From: an uncultured Bacteroidales bacterium
GTDB lineage: Bacteria; Bacteroidota; Bacteroidia; Bacteroidales; ML635J-15
Reading direction: 5' to 3'
Length of the DNA stretch: 64,000 nt
Assembly: GCA_905234755.1 (NCBI GenBank)
Contig: CAJOIT010000003.1
Coordinates: forward strand, 705,764 to 769,763
Shown here: positions 6,731 through 41,448 of the stretch, one piece after another
Layout: the number at the start of each line of letters is the position of its first letter
Numbering within the stretch: position 1 is the first letter of the stretch
Translations under genes and position numbers: made by a program
The notes under the pieces: generated by a model
The model's input: only the letters and a program-made list of their open reading frames with translations
Databases searched by the model: none
What the model was told of the DNA's origin: nothing

Positions 6731-7878
6731 ACGATATTGAACTGAAATACAAAACTGAAATTGCAAAATACCTAAAATCCACTCCTGACGACATTTTCCT
6801 CTACTGGAAAGGTCGCGTGGCATTGTTCGCAATTTTGAAAGCAATGGACATACAAAAGGACAATGAAGTGATATTGCCAGCTTTTACCTGCGTGGTGGTT
6901 CCAAATGCGATAAAGTATCTCGGTGCAAAACCAATATATGTTGACATTGACGCAACAACATACAACTTTGATTTAAACCAACTTAGGTCAAAAATTACAG
7001 AACGGACAAAAGTCATAATATGCCAGAATACTTTCGGTTTGTCGTCCAATGTTGAGAAAGTTGTTGCCATTGCCAAGGAAAACAACATAAAAACCATTGA
7101 GGACTGCACTCACGGTTTCGGTGGCACATACCAAGGGAAACCAAACGGAAGCTACTGCGATGCAGCCTTTTATTCAACGCAATGGAACAAGCCGTATAGC
7201 ACTGGTGTTGGCGGTTTTGCACTTGTTACCGACCAAAATCTGAAAGCCAAATTGGAAAAAGTAAACGCCGACTTGGAACCAGCAACATTTAAGGATAAAA
7301 TCTCGTTGTCGACATTGTACTTCGTCCGCGAAAAGATATTGACAGACCGCAGATACTGGCGCATGGTGAAGCTGTACAGATGGCTCAGCAAGCACAAATT
7401 GGTTCAGGGCTCATCATCTGGCACCGAGATAGAATCAACAGAGATGCCGTCACACTATTTCAAGGGTATGTCAACCACACAGATGAAAAAAGGCATTACC
7501 AACCTTGCCAAATTGGGCGAAATGATACCGCTAAGAAAGGCTAACGCAGCCATTTACAGCGAATACCTAAAATCCAAAGGCAAGACATTCGTTCCGACAG
7601 AGCAATTCCAGGACCATTCGTTCCTGAAATATCCGTTTCTTGTCAAGGAGCGTGAAACCGTAATGAGAATTGCCGAGGAAAATAAAATTCCTCTTGGCGA
7701 ATGGTTTTGCAGTCCGATACATCCAGTCATGGAACACTTTGACCAATGGGATTTCTGCGAATGCGAATTCCCTGTCGCAACAAAATACTCAAGCGAAATG
7801 CTGAATTTGCCAACCGATGTTAAGGATACCGCCCCTGTCCTAGCCTTTCTTGACAAGATTGACGGTTTTTTGCTATAA
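6727..7878 (+). CDS. DegT/DnrJ/EryC1/StrS-family PLP-dependent sugar aminotransferase
   Basis: 383 aa. ILPAFTCVVVPNAIKYLGAKPIYVDID, and FYSTQWNKPYSTGVGG (candidate PLP-lysine segment). Last gene of the operon. Confidence 0.8.
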   Translation: MNDIELKYKTEIAKYLKSTPDDIFLYWKGRVALFAILKAMDIQKDNEVILPAFTCVVVPNAIKYLGAKPIYVDIDATTYNFDLNQLRSKITERTKVIICQNTFGLSSNVEKVVAIAKENNIKTIEDCTHGFGGTYQGKPNGSYCDAAFYSTQWNKPYSTGVGGFALVTDQNLKAKLEKVNADLEPATFKDKISLSTLYFVREKILTDRRYWRMVKLYRWLSKHKLVQGSSSGTEIESTEMPSHYFKGMSTTQMKKGITNLAKLGEMIPLRKANAAIYSEYLKSKGKTFVPTEQFQDHSFLKYPFLVKERETVMRIAEENKIPLGEWFCSPIHPVMEHFDQWDFCECEFPVATKYSSEMLNLPTDVKDTAPVLAFLDKIDGFLL

Positions 7879-37106: not shown

Positions 37107-38200
37107 CTTTCCCATGCGATACCTATTTTTAATAAAACAGATGGTGCATACACTTTGTTTTTTATATCATACGAGGCTCCCGCACTTATACCGAGAAAGA
37201 ACAAGGGCCAAGAATCTACGATAAAGTTGTAACCAACATGAAAATGTAATCCATGACTATGTTCTACATTCTTCTGCCTTGCGTAAATTCTATAATCATG
37301 TCCATAAACTTTACCTACATCATAAACAGGCATATTAATTGTTCCATAGCCACAACCCATAAATAATCCTTCATATATATATAATTTTAAACCACCAGAA
37401 TAATGAAAAAAAAGTTTGCTTATTGTTTCATTAAAACTATAGTAATCTGAATAAAATTTAACATGTGTGAAATCCATTCCAAAATCCAAATATCCACCAA
37501 TACCAATAACACCACCGTATCGAAACTCTACGCCATCAGTCAAATTCCAAGGATAACCAGTTCCTGCAATGTTCCATGCAACATAATTGCGATCACCCCA
37601 GGAGAGATTATCTCTAATTTGTTTTTTTCGTTTTGCCTTTGCAGCCTGTTTTTCTTTGAGAGCTTGAAGCCTAGCCTCCTGCTCCTGCCTTTTTCTGTCT
37701 TCTTCAATCTTGTCTTTATACTCCTCCTTCATAATCTCACGCAATTCTTTTGCCTTACTGAAATCATAACAATCTCCCGCAAATTGCCTGAATTTGGGTT
37801 CAATATTTCCACTGATAGCCACTTGCAAGAGCTGATAATAATACCACTGCTCCCCATCACGTGACTTTTCAGAAAAATAGCAAACCTCTTTCATTGGTAT
37901 TTCATAATGGCTGGCAACAACGTTGAAATCTTGGTCGCTCGACTGAAACGCCTTGAAAATATCCATTGAATTGGATCCTACCCCGACTCGTGACTGCGCT
38001 TCCTTGACTGCCATTACAAACGCATCGGTACGAGCCTCTTTTTCTGTGTCGCCAACACCTTTGCTTACATAGTATTCGTAAGTATCATTCTCAGCCTGCG
38101 GCGGATTAAATGTCCAGTTCGGACGCATTGAAATATATGTTTGTGCAAATGCAACATTGCTAATCAATATGATTGCAAATAATTGAAATAACCTTTTCAT
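37103..38200 (-). CDS. Secreted protein: LPP20-like N-terminal domain + charged coiled coil + C-terminal small beta-barrel (outer-membrane type)
   Basis: 365 aa. Signal peptide MKRLFQLFAIILISNVAFAQ. The N-domain is paralogous to the product of 38204-38650. KE-rich helix (residues ~160-200). The C-terminal ~165 aa have alternating hydrophobic/aromatic strands ending in IGIAWER. Confidence 0.6.
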   Translation of the reverse strand: MKRLFQLFAIILISNVAFAQTYISMRPNWTFNPPQAENDTYEYYVSKGVGDTEKEARTDAFVMAVKEAQSRVGVGSNSMDIFKAFQSSDQDFNVVASHYEIPMKEVCYFSEKSRDGEQWYYYQLLQVAISGNIEPKFRQFAGDCYDFSKAKELREIMKEEYKDKIEEDRKRQEQEARLQALKEKQAAKAKRKKQIRDNLSWGDRNYVAWNIAGTGYPWNLTDGVEFRYGGVIGIGGYLDFGMDFTHVKFYSDYYSFNETISKLFFHYSGGLKLYIYEGLFMGCGYGTINMPVYDVGKVYGHDYRIYARQKNVEHSHGLHFHVGYNFIVDSWPLFFLGISAGASYDIKNKVYAPSVLLKIGIAWER

Positions 38201-38203
38201 AAA

Positions 38204-38650
38204 TCATTGACATTTAGTAAATTCTTCAAATTGTGGTTCTTTATTTCCAAATTTTGCGACCTGCCACAGAACATACAACCGAATCAAGTCTCCCATTGGA
38301 GTATGGTTCGCCTCCCAATAATCACACACTTTATTCATAGGTATACTTATAAAGTCTTGATTAACATTAACTCCTTCTGTTACTGAATTTTCAAGAGACT
38401 TGACATCATCTTGGAAATGCACCTCTACCCCCATTCTCCATTTTGCTTCCATCACGGCTTTTGCAAAAGCATTGGCGTATGCTTTGTCGTAAGAAACATC
38501 TTCAGCCATCGTAACACGATAGTAATAATTCTTGTCTGCTCCTGCACTCGGCAATTGTGTTACCCAATATGGAAGAACACGTCCAGTCTGTGCGTTTGCA
38601 GTAAGAATCAAGCAAAGGAATATAAAAAAAGAAAACAATCTTACTTTCAT
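38204..38650 (-). CDS. Small secreted protein, paralog of the N-terminal domain of the downstream gene
   Basis: The ORF is open to 38707. I prefer the ATG at 38650, which gives the signal MKVRLFSFFIFLCLILTANAQ. Pattern shared with 37103-38200: P.W..P.A...Y.Y.V...A..AF..AV.EA..R.GV....IPM..VC...Y.L.QVA..GN.EP.F..F..C. Confidence 0.6.
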   Translation of the reverse strand: MKVRLFSFFIFLCLILTANAQTGRVLPYWVTQLPSAGADKNYYYRVTMAEDVSYDKAYANAFAKAVMEAKWRMGVEVHFQDDVKSLENSVTEGVNVNQDFISIPMNKVCDYWEANHTPMGDLIRLYVLWQVAKFGNKEPQFEEFTKCQ

Positions 38651-38710
38651 AATATTAATCATTATGTTAGAGGGGAGCAAACAGACATAGCTCTGCTTGC
38701 TCCCCATAAA

Positions 38711-39514
38711 TTATTCTGATTTTTCCTCCAATGCTTTAAGTCTTTGTAAATCTGCCTGATTGGCTTCTTGCTTTTTACGGGATTGTTCATCCAACTCGGT
38801 TTGCAGCCTTTTCCTAAAAAGAGCCTTGTCAATATCCAATTCCCTTTCATCTTCAATTGCCTTGTCAATTTCATCAAGCACATCATTTGAGGCTACATAC
38901 AATGCTACATAACACCCATATCCTCCTTTCTTGTCCTGAATCCATTCACGACAAGCTGGTTTCATTAATTTGTTAATGGCTTTTTCACATACATTGATAC
39001 AAAGGCCTTCCAACTGAGCCTCTTGCAGACGAGTCAAACTTTTGGTGTCAGAATCTTTAGTATAATCTTCTATACCATTTTTGATTACACCCACCCAGCG
39101 GGTCATCAATTCTGCAATAGCATTACGGTTAGCATCCTTTAGTGCCAATTCTTGACGTTCCTTTCCTGTTGCCATTCCTTGTGCAGCCATCTGATTGGTC
39201 TTTTCTAATTCTAGAGCTTCTTTAGTACAAGGGATTAACAGTTTTTTTGCACCAGCTTCCAAAACTGCTTGATTATTAAGTTCCGACATTGCTATTTCCT
39301 GCTGTCTCTTAAGCAATTCCAACTCATTTTGGACTTTGATTAACTCTGCTTGCTCTTTCGCTTCTCGTATTTGTCTTTGTATATCAGATTCTTGTGGTTG
39401 TGTTGATGTTTGTGCTTGTGGTTGTTGTGCAACTATTGGTTGAGGCGACTTACAAGAAAATAGAACTGCAACTGCCATTAACATCATTACAGAAAACAAT
39501 ATTTTACTTTTCAT
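38711..39514 (-). CDS. Lipoprotein with coiled-coil flanks and central LPP20-like domain
   Basis: 267 aa. Lipobox VLFSC. Q/E-rich coiled coils at both ends. The central segment GMATGKERQELALKDANRNAIAELMTRWVGVIKNG resembles the LPP20 lipoprotein family. Confidence 0.55.
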   Translation of the reverse strand: MKSKILFSVMMLMAVAVLFSCKSPQPIVAQQPQAQTSTQPQESDIQRQIREAKEQAELIKVQNELELLKRQQEIAMSELNNQAVLEAGAKKLLIPCTKEALELEKTNQMAAQGMATGKERQELALKDANRNAIAELMTRWVGVIKNGIEDYTKDSDTKSLTRLQEAQLEGLCINVCEKAINKLMKPACREWIQDKKGGYGCYVALYVASNDVLDEIDKAIEDERELDIDKALFRKRLQTELDEQSRKKQEANQADLQRLKALEEKSE

Positions 39515-39637
39515 TTCAATTTTTGTCGGTTATATCCCATCGGCACATCGGTTTTTGTTCAAAATTTTATTTTTCCCCCTACTCGTTTGGCTTTTCGGGA
39601 ATTATCCGCCTGTGCCATTTCGTTGAAATACCCACAT

Positions 39638-39809
39638 AAAAAAAGCGTGGCACTTTAAGTCTTCATCGGATTCCTTGAGGTCTTGGACTACCTAATCTAC
39701 CCAACTACAACATTAAGTCCACGCATATAGCGCGGAATGCCATTGCCTTGCTCTGGGTAGATTTTGAAATTGTCCAAGTTTCAAGAAATCCAGATAAGCT
39801 ACTTAGCTT
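39638..39809 (-). ncRNA. Candidate structured cis-regulatory leader RNA, unclassified (copy 2 of 2)
   Basis: On the minus strand: P0 39809-39796; P1 39791-39772 with 39688-39668; P2 39762-39754 with 39703-39695; P3 hairpin 39735-39719. The alternative helix GCGUGGACUUAA (39724-13) / UUAAAGUGCCACGC (39658-45) is followed by U7 (39644-38). Strand assignment is tentative. Confidence 0.55.
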
Positions 39810-39946
39810 TTTCCTATTTTAAAATGTGTGTATCAAATTACACTTATGCTACATAGGCGAACCATTTATGTTGCAGGCACTATACTATGTTTGTCTGGCA
39901 ATTGGTGGCGACCTGCATTAACCGCACAAAGCCAAAATTTGAAGCA

Positions 39947-39954
39947 CAAATGTA
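39947..39954 (-). promoter_or_regulatory. Possible Bacteroidota -7 box (TAnnTTTG) for the leader and four-gene cassette
   Basis: The minus strand reads TACATTTG, with a TTTG (39978-75) 20 nt upstream. This would give a leader of about 425 nt. Confidence 0.4.
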
Positions 39955-40270: not shown

Positions 40271-40315
40271 AATATTTAAGTTAGTATCTTAAAATTTCAA
40301 GGAATATGTTAGATA
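40271..40315 (+). repeat. 45-nt direct repeat (copy 2) spanning the 5' UTR and start codon of the ATPase gene
   Basis: See 40093-40137. It contains the ATG at 40306, and the corresponding triplet in copy 1 is ATT. Confidence 0.7.
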
Positions 40316-41448
40316 GGTTTTACAAGATAAGCGAATATGTTGAGGACATGAGCGTATTTCTGTTCGGAGCAAGAAAGACAGGCAAATCCACCTTCCTACG
40401 AAAAACCTTTCCTAAGGCTTTGTATATAGACTTGCTTGATTCAGAACTCGGTGCACTATACAAACGCCGTCCATCATACCTTTACGAACAATTGGAAGAC
40501 AAATCGTCCGACACCATTGTAATAATAGACGAAATTCAGGAAGTACCGGAATTACTCAACGAAGTTCACCGCCTAATATTCAAGAACGACATCCGCTTTA
40601 TTCTCTGCGGAAGCAGTGCCCGCAAACTAAGGCGCAAAGGCTACAATACACTCGGAGGTCGCGCTTTCCCGTGCTACTTCTACCCTTTGGTCAGTTGTGA
40701 GATTCCTAATTTCGACTTACAAAAAGCACTAAACGACGGACTCATTCCTCAGCATTACCTAAGCAAGAACCCCAAGCGACTTCTCGCCGCCTATATCGAT
40801 GTATATCTTAAAGAAGAAATCAAAGCGGAAGCAATAGTCAGAAATCTTGACGGATTCCAGCGTTTTCTTGAAGTCGCCGCACTGACCAACGGTGAAATAG
40901 TAAACTTCACCAATATTGCCAGCGACTGCGGTGTAAAGTCGGTAACAGTAAAAGAATATTTTTCAATACTACAGGACACACTAATTGGCTATATGATACC
41001 TGCATATACAAAATCAATGAAGCGTAAACTTGTGCAGGCACCACGTTTCTATTATTTCGATGTCGGAGTTGCCAATTATCTGCTTAAACGCCAGACATTA
41101 ATACGCGGTTCTGCGGAATACGGACATGCCTTTGAGCATCTTGTAATCCAAGAACTTATTGCCTACATAGGATATACCAACTCTCAAGAAAAGCTCAGCT
41201 ACTGGCACACATACTCGGGACTGGAAGTTGACGCCATAATTGGAGACGCTCGCATAGCTATAGAAATCAAGTCTGTAGATGAAGTATTACCAAAACACCT
41301 AAAAGGGCTGAAAGCATTTCACGAAGAACATCCCGACTGCCAACTGATGTTTGTTTCGCACGACAGAATCAACCGCACATCTTCTGGCGTTAAGATTATC
41401 AACATCAACGACTTCCTCAAGGATCTTTGGGAAGGAAAAATATTCTAA
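40306..41448 (+). CDS. AAA_14/DUF4143-type ATPase
   Basis: 380 aa. Walker A GARKTGKST and Walker B VIIDEIQ. The C-terminal YWHTYSGLEVDAII...IEIKS is a nuclease-fold-like region typical of DUF4143 proteins. Confidence 0.8.
   Translation: MLDRFYKISEYVEDMSVFLFGARKTGKSTFLRKTFPKALYIDLLDSELGALYKRRPSYLYEQLEDKSSDTIVIIDEIQEVPELLNEVHRLIFKNDIRFILCGSSARKLRRKGYNTLGGRAFPCYFYPLVSCEIPNFDLQKALNDGLIPQHYLSKNPKRLLAAYIDVYLKEEIKAEAIVRNLDGFQRFLEVAALTNGEIVNFTNIASDCGVKSVTVKEYFSILQDTLIGYMIPAYTKSMKRKLVQAPRFYYFDVGVANYLLKRQTLIRGSAEYGHAFEHLVIQELIAYIGYTNSQEKLSYWHTYSGLEVDAIIGDARIAIEIKSVDEVLPKHLKGLKAFHEEHPDCQLMFVSHDRINRTSSGVKIININDFLKDLWEGKIF

Follow-up and report, generated by a model that had tools for sequence, protein, structure and literature searches.

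Within the window, a stretch of 64,000 nucleotides from an uncultured Bacteroidales bacterium, two copies of a structured RNA element lie on the minus strand, each ahead of a gene for a lipoprotein. The copy under study (copy 2) stands in the leader of a four-gene cassette, and copy 1 precedes a lipoprotein gene elsewhere in the window. The features of the two loci are as follows.

39947-39954, minus strand: candidate Bacteroidota -7 promoter box of the copy 2 leader, TACATTTG, of the TAnnTTTG type, from sequence
39849-39859, minus strand: cgCCUAUG motif with start-stop mini-ORF, AUG 39854-39852, UAG 39851-39849
39824-39843, minus strand: small hairpin HpA, GUGUA (39843-39839) with UACAC (39832-39828), from sequence
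39796-39809, minus strand: hairpin P0, AAGCU-AAGU-AGCUU, with an A-run just before it, from sequence
39668-39791, minus strand: rod of copy 2, from the fold, model matches of 127 bits and 98.9 bits and family-wide pair counts
39791-81 with 39678-68, minus strand: helix P1a, GGAUUUCUUGA with UCAAGGAAUCC, from sequence and fold
39780-79 opposite 39681-79, minus strand: P1a/P1b internal loop, AA opposite ACC
39778-72 with 39688-82, minus strand: helix P1b, CUUGGAC with GUCCAAG, from sequence and fold
39771-63 and 39694-89, minus strand: joining segments J1/2, AAUUUCAAA, and J2/1, UAGGUA
39762-54 with 39703-695, minus strand: helix P2
39736-30 with 39724-18, minus strand: helix P3; CCGCGC-UAUAU-GCGUGG, which includes a G-U pair, is 39735-19
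39713-39724, minus strand: segment X, GCGUGGACUUAA, the P3 3′ strand and the bases after it, which pairs in the rod or with T
39638-39658, minus strand: segment T, UUAAAGUGCCACGC (39658-45), then U7 (39644-38), which together would form the 3′ half of a conditional intrinsic terminator
39612-39637, minus strand: post-terminator segments, AUGUGGGUAU (39637-28), complementary to the HpA 3′ arm, and GGCAC (39616-12), complementary to GUGCC of T (39653-49)
39524-39598, minus strand: second conserved leader module, Block A CCGAAAAGCCAAACGAGUAGG (39598-78) and Block B, a hairpin with loop AUGGGAUAUAA (39553-24)
38711-39514, minus strand: cassette gene 1, a 267-aa lipoprotein (MKSKILFSVMMLMAVAVLFSC...), from ORF reading
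38204-38707, 37103-38200 and 36638-37069: cassette genes after gene 1
31722-31729, minus strand: TATATTTG box of copy 1
31480-31641, minus strand: copy 1, from fold, sequence and model matches, with P0 at 31641-24 and the rod at 31618-31511
Helices of the copy 1 rod, minus strand: P1a GAACCUA/UAGGUUC, AA/ACC loop, P1b UUCUGGAAA/UUUCCAGAA, P2 CAUCAC/GUGAUG, P2a GAGAAAG/CUUUUUC, P3 CGCGG/CCGUG
31493-86, minus strand: segment T of copy 1, AAGCCCAC, then U6 at 31485-80
30328-31422: lipoprotein gene downstream of copy 1

When the minus-strand sequence of copy 2 was re-read, its helices were all found at the coordinates previously listed, including P0, P1, P2 and P3 with its G-U pair. In this copy P1 splits into two helices, P1a and P1b, and the A-rich/C-rich internal loop that the original prediction had put at the same place in both copies is the AA/ACC loop between these two helices. 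An additional helix of the rod, P2a, is weak in copy 2. The fold of copy 2 has an energy of -68.6 kcal/mol (z = -6.4), which none of 200 shuffles equalled, and that of copy 1 has a z of -6.9 against shuffles. The two copies had been held to be more than a chance resemblance, and the apical pattern common to them has indeed no other match in the window, where the chance expectation is 0. When copy 1 was left out and a covariance model was trained on copy 2 plus two orthologous leaders, this model still recovered copy 1, at 27.1 bits (E 8e-4), and a model from 80 genomes scores it at 42.3 bits (E 2e-7); by these scores copy 1 and copy 2 evidently belong to one RNA family. The GCAUUC described before P3 occurs in both copies of the window but does not characterise the family; the leaders L004 and L015, for example, have GCGCUC.

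One pattern scan of species-representative genomes returned at least 120 loci, all but two of which are matched by the covariance model. The scan matches span Bacteroidales, Sphingobacteriales, Chitinophagales and Flavobacteriales, and the genera that carry the RNA module range from Bacteroides, Prevotella and Alistipes through to Sphingobacterium and Flavobacterium, with several to many copies in each genome. In over 150 distinct homologues, spread through the phylum, the helices are retained. Their rod consists of about 45 bp (P1a, P1b, P2, P2a, P3) interrupted by conserved internal loops and is 110-190 nt long, the long variants (e.g., L001, L008, L020) carrying an extra insert of about 60 nt. 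The claim that the helices are kept by compensatory change is upheld by two alignments, in which the proposed pairs are maintained among homologues. The genome-scan alignment, in which 93.7% of cells are paired versus 66.0% after shuffling and double-change cells number 765 versus 231, shows change on both sides in 32 of 38 pairs; sequence conservation at the base is partly forced by the search pattern in this set, and for that region only the set anchored on P0, outside the rod, is unbiased. In the latter, 91.0% of cells are paired versus 60.4% after shuffling, both sides have changed in 36 of 38 pairs, all seven P1b pairs covary (7/7), and the loop nucleotides (AA/RCC; A-UUU-AA/GGU) are conserved from Bacteroidales to Flavobacteriales. 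The motif AAAAGCGUUAGCUUU is conserved ahead of the rod in most members, and a search with this 15-mer alone turned up 36 additional rods in 100 metagenome loci. By itself, the 5′ block pattern has too little specificity, only 1 of its 52 matches in viral contigs being real. A contig of a viral collection carries one family copy, and a BLAST search of copy 2 against phage and plasmid collections gave no match. Since many G-U pairs are formed on the transcribed strand in the genome-scan alignment and the covariance model scores only 29 bits on the reverse strand versus 153 bits on the forward strand, the transcribed strand is fixed.

A search of the whole window with Rfam 15 (4227 models) at gathering thresholds gave no match, and permissive filters, applied to an 11-kb slice and to 230-280-nt slices of two members, gave only sub-threshold noise resembling microRNAs and snoRNAs. 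The conserved sequences led to nothing relevant in full-text literature or in 200 of the 408 supplement files of a human-microbiome structured-RNA catalogue. SRP RNA, 6S RNA, Y RNA, T-box, retron and attC-like elements were rejected, either for want of an Rfam match or because context, copy number or strand behaviour was wrong. The RNA had been predicted to be unclassified, and by its sequence and covariation it does represent a new class outside the families of Rfam 15, whose well-supported alignment is available for, and suits, a new Rfam family.

The position of the element is fixed, with a promoter on one side and a same-strand ORF on the other, the order being promoter, often a mini-ORF, small hairpin, P0, rod, T, U-run and then the ORF about 100 nt on. 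The conserved module is thus more extensive than originally described, reaching further both upstream, with the mini-ORF and small hairpin, and downstream. Upstream, 105 of 127 members have a TAnnTTTG box, whose median distance to P1a is 90 nt. Of the promoter that had been suggested for a long copy 2 leader, the TACATTTG box stands at 39954-47, 156 nt ahead of P1a and thus about 65 nt beyond the family median; because of this unusual distance, the transcription start itself can only be inferred. The upstream neighbour gene is divergent in 36 of 108 loci, which argues that the element has its own promoter. The cgCCUAUG motif occurs in 86 of 153 distinct leaders and is missing in 44%, its AUG lying at a median of 67 nt ahead of P1a (63 nt in copy 2), and frame 0 meets a stop within 5 sense codons in 78 of the 86 motif-bearing leaders, versus about one third for the +2 frame. 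The stop codon of this putative mini-ORF (1-5 codons) abuts HpA, which reads GCGUA/UACGC in most relatives versus GUGUA/UACAC in copy 2. The HpA 3′ arm of copy 2, AUACACACAU (39833-39824), is also complementary to 39637-39628. The corresponding helix between HpA 3′ arm and post-U-run sequence covaries in a subset of leaders and is strong in 49 of 147, but over the whole set of 147 it is non-significant (p 0.1) and hence a subfamily feature only.

Beyond the rod, 124 of 127 members have a T-run no more than 60 nt from the rod end (median offset 20 nt). Of the 111 loci whose downstream sequence is long enough, 91 (82%) have a same-strand ORF of at least 40 aa that begins within 300 nt, the distance being narrow with a median of 97 nt. 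The second leader module, which stops 10 nt short of the start codon, occurs in every orthologous cassette locus examined, even in those without a rod nearby, and Block A is found 50-73 nt past the rod in six independent leaders. The genes behind both copies had been described as encoding signal-peptide/lipobox proteins, and both N-termini do carry these features (...VLFSC behind copy 2, ...LFSSC behind copy 1). Comparison of the first cassette gene with Pfam and NCBIfam gave no family match at cutoff. Homologues of the 267-aa lipoprotein form 20 clusters from ruminant-gut Bacteroidales and Paludibacteraceae assemblies, and the order of the cassette genes is kept in related loci. Across the homologues of the RNA, 92 of 115 downstream ORFs (80%), from 78 unrelated clusters, have a signal-peptide-like N-terminus by a crude heuristic that comes without a background rate, in agreement with the proposed placement ahead of lipoprotein genes. 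The regulon consists mostly of unrelated exported or surface proteins, plus some defence-like genes, with no common pathway; such a composition points to a global cue (envelope, growth state, stress) rather than to a pathway metabolite.

The alternative helix that had been proposed between 39724-13 and 39658-45, followed by U7, is present in copy 2, and the competing helix covaries family-wide. Segment X has two mutually exclusive partners, either the 5′ strands of P2a and P3 or segment T, and T resembles these 5′ strands. The native X:T duplex has a mean of -14.6 kcal/mol, versus -11.2 for partners swapped between loci and -8.5 for shuffled T, and native T beats the swapped partners in 122 of 154 leaders (p 2e-7). 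The predicted competing helix is thus conserved, with covariation, and so is the U-run. In short variants such as copy 2, the sole partner of T sits inside the rod; in long variants (L020, BTnc262), a local hairpin beside the U-run could terminate alone. T also pairs with a downstream segment, at a native mean of -8.3 kcal/mol versus -6.9 for permuted sequences (p 2e-6); that segments behind the U-run pair back to T and to HpA suggests that read-through transcripts are under selection. The rod has a mean stability of -52 kcal/mol, and nested-structure energy models with explicit pairs favour it over the X:T state by about 20 kcal/mol. A search of the upstream 100 nt and of the sequence past the terminator for cis segments that would compete for the strands of the rod found none, native sequences performing no better than swapped ones. 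Given this stability and the lack of a cis competitor, X:T would be expected to win only through a trans-acting blocker of the rod or as a pseudoknot with the basal rod intact. A closing helix is possible, in which the A-run and the HpA 3′ arm would pair with the U-run and the bases that follow.

We interpret the element as a cis-acting conditional terminator leader that decides on read-through from its own promoter into the gene behind, a reading to which we assign a probability of roughly 0.58. As long as the rod is intact, RNA polymerase would read on into the gene. Pairing of X with T, directly before the U-run, would instead create an intrinsic terminator and leave a leader RNA of about 250-320 nt. 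Termination would be conditional, and the effector, whether protein, RNA or small molecule, might act at the conserved loops (AA/RCC, A-UUU-AA/GGU) or on the nascent 5′ strand of the rod. In about half of the leaders, including that of copy 2, the mini-ORF of 1-5 codons and HpA may add a ribosome-dependent input. A wider proposal, which we regard as possible rather than probable, is that of a phylum-wide riboregulator class placing many unrelated exported and accessory genes of each genome under one RNA-sensed signal with a new effector, with the antiterminator at the tip of a 45-bp rod and the mini-ORF input in about half of the copies.

Two intergenic sRNAs of Bacteroides thetaiotaomicron VPI-5482, BTnc262 and BTnc198, of 319 and 369 nt and each with its own TSS (Ryan et al. 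2020, PMC7366714), carry long variants of the element, as judged by sequence inspection and, for BTnc262, by profile matches and folding. They have been catalogued as sRNAs only, without an assigned family, structure or function (PMC7366714), and no mention of either was found in the literature text searched. BTnc262 (6024348-6024667) has a mapped TSS with a canonical PM1 promoter and an annotated 3′ end at the U-run. Its basal parts are P1a GCUGUUUGA/UCAAACAGC, an AA/GCC loop and P1b CUUCGAAC/GUUCGAAG, and its apex carries GGCGUGGGCUU, with CCCGCGC and the U-run after it. Family sequence profiles match both halves in order (E 1e-4 to 1e-3 each), and the RNA folds as a 186-nt rod whose base is that of the family. 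Both B. thetaiotaomicron RNAs differ from copy 2 in a rod insert of about 60 nt, as in L001, L008 and L020, and in a local terminator hairpin; because that hairpin beside the U-run could terminate alone, they could be plain sRNAs. With both RNAs present in a genetically tractable model organism, the conditional-terminator hypothesis is directly testable.

Other explanations have to be weighed against the conditional terminator. It is hardly credible that the element is a mobile palindromic DNA repeat of the MITE or REP type, or a structure acting at the DNA level, without a function as RNA. The many copies per genome, the near-palindromic layout and the copy on the viral-collection contig might suggest as much, but the window copies are far from identical and share little helix sequence while keeping the pairs, no target-site duplications flank either of them (ATCT/GATG at copy 2, GTCCT/GGATA at copy 1), the G-U pairs are strand-specific and scores on the reverse strand much weaker, orientation and distance to promoter and ORF are fixed, and the element is transcribed in B. 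thetaiotaomicron. A mobile MITE, which the original prediction had named as an alternative that would refute it, is accordingly not supported. We also consider it distinctly improbable that the rod serves mainly RNA stability or processing, as a dsRNase substrate or a protective 5′ structure that sets the half-life or the mature 5′ end, with the U-run and T being secondary. A long, near-continuous and very stable duplex that lacks a cis competitor, together with the possible closing helix, would fit such a role; it would leave unexplained the covarying complementarity between T and the 3′ strand of the apex before the U-run, the in vivo 3′ end at the U-run and the conservation of loop nucleotides between distant orders.

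The elements might alternatively be independent, multi-copy genes for sRNAs that act in trans or sponge a protein, their conserved loops being seed or protein sites and the gene behind a mere neighbour or a target of leaky read-through. This reading, unlikely but to be taken seriously, draws on the annotation of the two B. thetaiotaomicron members as sRNAs, on the combination of promoter, U-run and high copy number that resembles FopS-like Bacteroides families (PMC11697453), on the phylum-wide conservation of the loop sequences and on the self-sufficient terminator hairpin of the long variants. An unlinked sRNA, however, needs neither an ORF on the same strand at a narrow distance nor the 80% of exported products, the confinement of the T partner to the rod in short variants is the layout of a switch, and conserved segments behind the U-run fold back onto T and the upstream hairpin. 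A small-molecule riboswitch would be a special case of the conditional terminator, in which the aptamer for a global metabolite or second messenger would be the rod's basal half (AA/RCC loop, P1b, A-UUU-AA/GGU loop, P2) and ligand binding would decide between the apical antiterminator and X:T. Conserved unpaired loop nucleotides between freely covarying helices and an expression platform of terminator and antiterminator are consistent with this idea. Second-messenger riboswitches have heterogeneous regulons of surface and accessory genes, and the regulon of the present element is likewise heterogeneous. We nevertheless hold a riboswitch to be improbable, in view of an unbranched rod whose small loops offer no obvious pocket, an apex that as putative platform is unusual in being as conserved in sequence as the putative aptamer, a gene context that suggests no candidate ligand and a rod that is far more stable than its alternative even without ligand.

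Gut and rumen communities are dominated by Bacteroidota, in which the control of expression after transcription initiation is poorly understood. Here, one conserved RNA module stands ahead of surface, secreted and defence-type genes without an assigned function. If the conditional terminator is indeed regulated, it would reveal an extensive regulon that has so far been hidden, together with a new signal sensed by RNA; many "hypothetical lipoprotein" genes would become accessible together, and the two B. thetaiotaomicron sRNAs would be reinterpreted as leader products.

Several known systems invite comparison. The leader of tetQ is about 130 nt long and acts on the ribosome-binding region of the resistance gene. 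This leader, from CTnDOT, was reportedly described by Wang and colleagues in 2005 as encoding a 3-amino-acid leader peptide and working by translational attenuation. In layout, about half of the present leaders resemble that of tetQ, with a putative ORF of 1-5 codons ahead of alternative hairpins; the present leader differs in its length of 250-430 nt, in that the alternative structure is a terminator and in that the downstream genes are not resistance genes. The leaders of capsule operons governed by UpxY, a NusG paralogue, precede the upxY gene and contain an ops-like pause site (PMC11685472); they were ruled out on gene content, no NusG-like first gene occurring in the sample scanned. With the FopS/GibS family, the element shares multiple copies, a canonical promoter, conservation in Bacteroidaceae and a link to the expression of cell-surface proteins (PMC11697453). 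FopS RNAs are 65-70 nt long, act in trans on susC mRNAs via a 5′ seed and have been reported within Bacteroidaceae (PMC11697453), whereas the present RNA forms a 110-190-nt rod within a longer leader and occurs phylum-wide; on size and architecture the FopS/GibS family (R1 seed at the 5′ end, GibS being longer than 65-70 nt) was ruled out. The element also resembles transcription-attenuating leaders (riboswitches, and protein- or ribosome-dependent attenuators): its covarying structured domain is part of a 5′ leader and has the same sense as the gene, and antiterminator and intrinsic terminator are mutually exclusive helices that have one strand in common, with a U-run after the terminator. 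Unlike in known attenuators, it is the tip of a single long rod, and not a helix closing a branched aptamer, that forms the antiterminator, and the regulon is defined by protein export rather than by a pathway.

Copy 2 was read on the minus strand, where each of its proposed helices was found: the small hairpin P0 is followed by a rod of about 45 bp (P1a, P1b, P2, P2a and P3; 39668-39791) and by a helix that competes with the rod apex:

39809-39796, minus strand: P0
39791-72 with 39688-68, minus strand: P1
39762-54 with 39703-695, minus strand: P2
39735-19, minus strand: P3, with one G-U pair
39724-13 with 39658-45, minus strand: alternative helix, followed by U7 at 39644-38

P1 is divided into P1a (11 bp) and P1b (7 bp) by an AA/ACC internal loop, and both this loop and the order of elements are common to copy 2 and copy 1 (rod 31511-31618, minus strand), while the helix sequences differ. 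A 186-nt stretch of copy 2 has a folding energy of -68.6 kcal/mol (z = -6.4 relative to dinucleotide shuffles); copy 1 (31645-31475) yields z = -6.9. The relatedness claimed for the two copies was corroborated by a covariance model constructed from copy 2 and two orthologous leaders, with copy 1 left out, which detects copy 1 (27 bits, E 8e-4) and also matches a longer variant (L020, a homologous locus). Under a broader model made from 80 sequences, copy 1 scores 42 bits (E 2e-7). The designation as unclassified holds in Rfam 15, which contains nothing matching the element, whether searched at gathering thresholds or, for short slices, with permissive filters.

Orthologues of the lipoprotein encoded downstream make up a small family, represented in assemblies of ruminant-gut Bacteroidales and of Paludibacteraceae. 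In several of these loci the element lies upstream of the gene, and P2 and P1a show compensatory changes. A scan of one genome per species, using a pattern that fixes two basal loop regions only, yielded at least 120 loci, all but two of those listed matching the model at E <= 0.01. The loci listed are distributed as follows:

Bacteroidales: Bacteroidaceae, Prevotellaceae, Alistipes/Rikenellaceae, Porphyromonadaceae, Tannerella, Muribaculaceae, Paludibacteraceae, Dysgonomonadaceae, Odoribacter
Sphingobacteriales: Sphingobacterium, Pelobium, Parapedobacter
Chitinophagales: Terrimonas
Flavobacteriales: Flavobacterium, Salegentibacter, Chryseobacterium, Weeksellaceae

Among them, one Candidatus Symbiothrix assembly harbors at least six copies. 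Three loci (L129, L160, L182) carry two same-strand members 0.7-2.7 kb apart, as tandem leader-gene units, and good matches in assemblies labelled Synergistales and Kiritimatiellaeota (L111, L176) could reflect contamination during binning or transfer to other phyla.

That pairing is kept despite sequence change is borne out by the 80-sequence alignment, in which 93.7% of cells are paired (66.0% when shuffled), double-change cells number 765 (231 when shuffled), and the covariation signal is lost once partners are slid by 1-3 columns. Since the scan pattern had forced part of the basal sequence, a second, independent set was made from metagenome contigs by using a 15-mer of the P0 hairpin, outside the rod, as the sole anchor. 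The rod is present behind this 15-mer in 36 of the first 100 loci (at least 120 are listed). Here 91.0% of cells are paired, versus 60.4% after shuffling, 36 of 38 pairs have changes in both partners, and P1b covaries in 7/7 pairs; the unpaired AA bulge, A-UUU-AA, GGU and RCCUC are conserved in this unbiased set while the helices vary. Frequent G-U pairs and a weak reverse-strand model score (29 vs 153 bits) establish that the functional strand is that of the downstream gene.

A T-run occurs in 124 of 127 members, at a median of 20 nt past the rod. As originally predicted, the segment directly before the U-run (T) is complementary to the 3′ strand of P3 and P2a (X), which makes T similar to the 5′ strands of these two helices. 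The mean duplex energy of X with its own T is -14.6 kcal/mol, compared with -11.2 for T from other loci and -8.5 for shuffled T, and in 122 of 154 leaders the native partner scores better (p 2e-7). Some variants, for example GCGUAGGUG with CAUCUACGC, have GUCCRCGC in place of the common GCGUGGGC. T is also complementary, more weakly, to a segment 25-45 nt past the U-run (-8.3 vs -6.9). In one subfamily, to which copy 2 belongs, the 3′ arm of a small upstream hairpin pairs with the bases immediately following the U-run; this pairing is strong in 49 of 147 leaders but overall not significant. In energy models limited to nested structures, enforcing X:T costs about 20 kcal/mol relative to the rod state, and no competition for the rod strands was found from the upstream leader or the downstream region, the positive control being clear; X:T would thus win only through a blocked rod or apical displacement. 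Either something would prevent rod formation and allow X:T to form, or X:T would displace the apical helices only, with the basal rod persisting in a pseudoknot, a case that lies outside the scoring of these models and that, by a rough length estimate, two 9-nt linkers could just permit.

The conserved module exceeds the rod reported earlier. A Bacteroidota -7 box (TAnnTTTG) is found in 105/127 members, its end lying a median of 90 nt from P1a (interquartile range 74-105), and one third of cases have a divergent upstream neighbour, which implies that the element has its own promoter. The box proposed for copy 2, TACATTTG, fits the consensus but is located some 65 nt further upstream than usual, so that a leader of about 425 nt, as read from sequence, is only plausible. 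Divergent from this leader is an AAA_14/DUF4143 ATPase gene (40306-41448, plus strand; E 1e-34), and roughly 500 nt of intergenic DNA must therefore hold both promoters. Between promoter and rod, 86 of 153 distinct leaders carry a uuGCCUAUGa motif, whose AUG opens an ORF ending within five sense codons in 78/86, the +2 frame ending that early in only about one third. Common mini-ORFs are AUG-AGA-UAA, AUG-AUA-UAA and AUG-AAA-CAU-UAG; the base after the AUG is A in 58/86, and the stop codon abuts a small covarying hairpin (GCGUA/UACGC in most relatives, GUGUA/UACAC in copy 2), after which come an A-run and P0. In copy 2, the sequence contains:

39849-39859, minus strand: GCCUAUG motif, present also in most of the loci compared
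39854-39849, minus strand: mini-ORF, a bare AUG-UAG 63 nt before P1a

Of the 111 loci having enough sequence, 91 have an ORF of 40 aa or more whose start lies no further than 300 nt away (median 97 nt). In line with the expectation that exported proteins or lipoproteins follow, a signal-peptide-like N-terminus is present in 92/115 first ORFs of at least 60 aa (a raw count by a crude heuristic), and a lipobox-like motif in 34/115. These 115 ORFs form 78 clusters with no detectable similarity to one another. Surface-type domains (Ig, PKD, Fib_succ_major, Lcl_C) appear in the Pfam sample together with non-exported accessory proteins (PD-(D/E)XK nuclease, type III restriction helicase, FtsK/STAND NTPase, family 2 glycosyltransferase), and in Sphingobacteriales the ORF product is conserved, about 71 aa long, and lacks a signal peptide. 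Both copies in the window do precede lipoprotein genes, neither protein having a family assignment; no protein of the four-gene envelope cassette behind copy 2 reaches any Pfam or NCBIfam cutoff. Within 37103-38707 (minus strand), a 167-aa protein and the N-terminal part of a 365-aa protein, both from this cassette, carry a similar motif past their signal peptides (YYY/YEYYV ... A.A.AF..AV.EA). On an IMG/VR contig classed as viral (L034), a member at 6973-7095 (minus strand) lies ahead of a PD-(D/E)XK nuclease gene and then a Sel1-repeat membrane protein, possibly a defence or mobile-element context.

A second conserved module is situated closer to the gene:

39524-39598, minus strand: second leader module, between terminator and start codon; also in L008, L010, L020, L095, L097, L143 and L145

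Block A reads CCGAAAnnCC...GAGUAGG. Block B, situated 10-20 nt ahead of the ATG, forms a hairpin whose stem covaries (GCCG/CGGC, GCUCG/UGAGC, GCCCG/UGGGC) and whose loop, AUGGGAUAUAA, is invariant. The module occurs in all lipoprotein-cassette orthologues, even without a rod nearby, and block A recurs 50-73 nt past the rod in unrelated leaders of three families. In L015 (1838-2685), L013 (1-720) and L008 (1942-3001), an extra small ORF (125-227 aa) with a second block B copy in front lies between rod and lipoprotein gene, suggesting that a resident leader receives gene insertions, or that the genes behind it are exchanged.

A search of the supplementary tables of a Bacteroides thetaiotaomicron dRNA-seq study (PMC7366714) matched the conserved motifs to two annotated intergenic sRNAs, BTnc262 (NC_004663.1 6024348-6024667, plus strand, 319 nt, mapped TSS, canonical PM1 promoter) and BTnc198 (4610950-4611319, minus strand, 369 nt), for which the paper text searched contains no mention. 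BTnc262 comprises P1a GCUGUUUGA/UCAAACAGC, an AA/GCC loop, P1b CUUCGAAC/GUUCGAAG, GGCGUGGGCUU, and CCCGCGC followed by the U-run at which its annotated 3′ end falls. Family sequence profiles match both halves in the correct order; its fold is a 186-nt rod whose base is as in the family, and a local hairpin adjoins the U-run. These data show that family members have a promoter from which they are transcribed, and that a product with its 3′ end at the U-run accumulates. Long rod variants, with an insert of about 60-90 nt, are:

L001, 2649-2859
L008, 1942-2118
L020, 2666-2849
BTnc262

The insert holds AGAUGCCUAUGGGUAUG-like sequence resembling the upstream GCCUAUG motif of short variants, and all four also carry a local terminator hairpin.

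The best-supported reading, with a probability of about 0.58, is that the leader acts in cis to control read-through at an intrinsic terminator. The apical rod would serve as antiterminator, an effector may act on the conserved loops or the nascent 5′ strand, and about half of the leaders may receive an additional ribosome-dependent input. A small-molecule riboswitch would be a special case of this reading, included in its probability, and is itself doubtful. The annotation in B. thetaiotaomicron and the long variants with their own terminator would also suit independent multi-copy sRNA genes, a possible but unlikely arrangement given the fixed spacing to same-strand ORFs, the export property common to these ORFs, and selection on sequences past the U-run. 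It is improbable that the rod serves in RNA stability or processing, and a mobile DNA repeat (MITE), named in the original prediction as what would speak against gene-associated leaders, is contradicted on several counts and extremely improbable.

Two members, BTnc262 and BTnc198, had been listed before as sRNAs without an explanation. The family might also have been touched on in a comparative study of Bacteroides RNAs. Palindromic Bacteroidetes motifs, mentioned in the large human-microbiome catalogue of candidate structured RNAs, might overlap with it. As a terminator-controlling leader, the element would work like a riboswitch or attenuator, and its GCCUAUG ORF of 1-5 codons resembles minigenes and start-stop regulatory ORFs; the tetQ leader, which encodes a 3-aa peptide, bears a resemblance to the mini-ORF leaders. 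Published descriptions set the element apart from the FopS/GibS sRNA family and from UpxY leaders, and it is a member of neither. The family is therefore rated a new class of a known regulatory kind, unusual in architecture and unusually broad in distribution and regulon.
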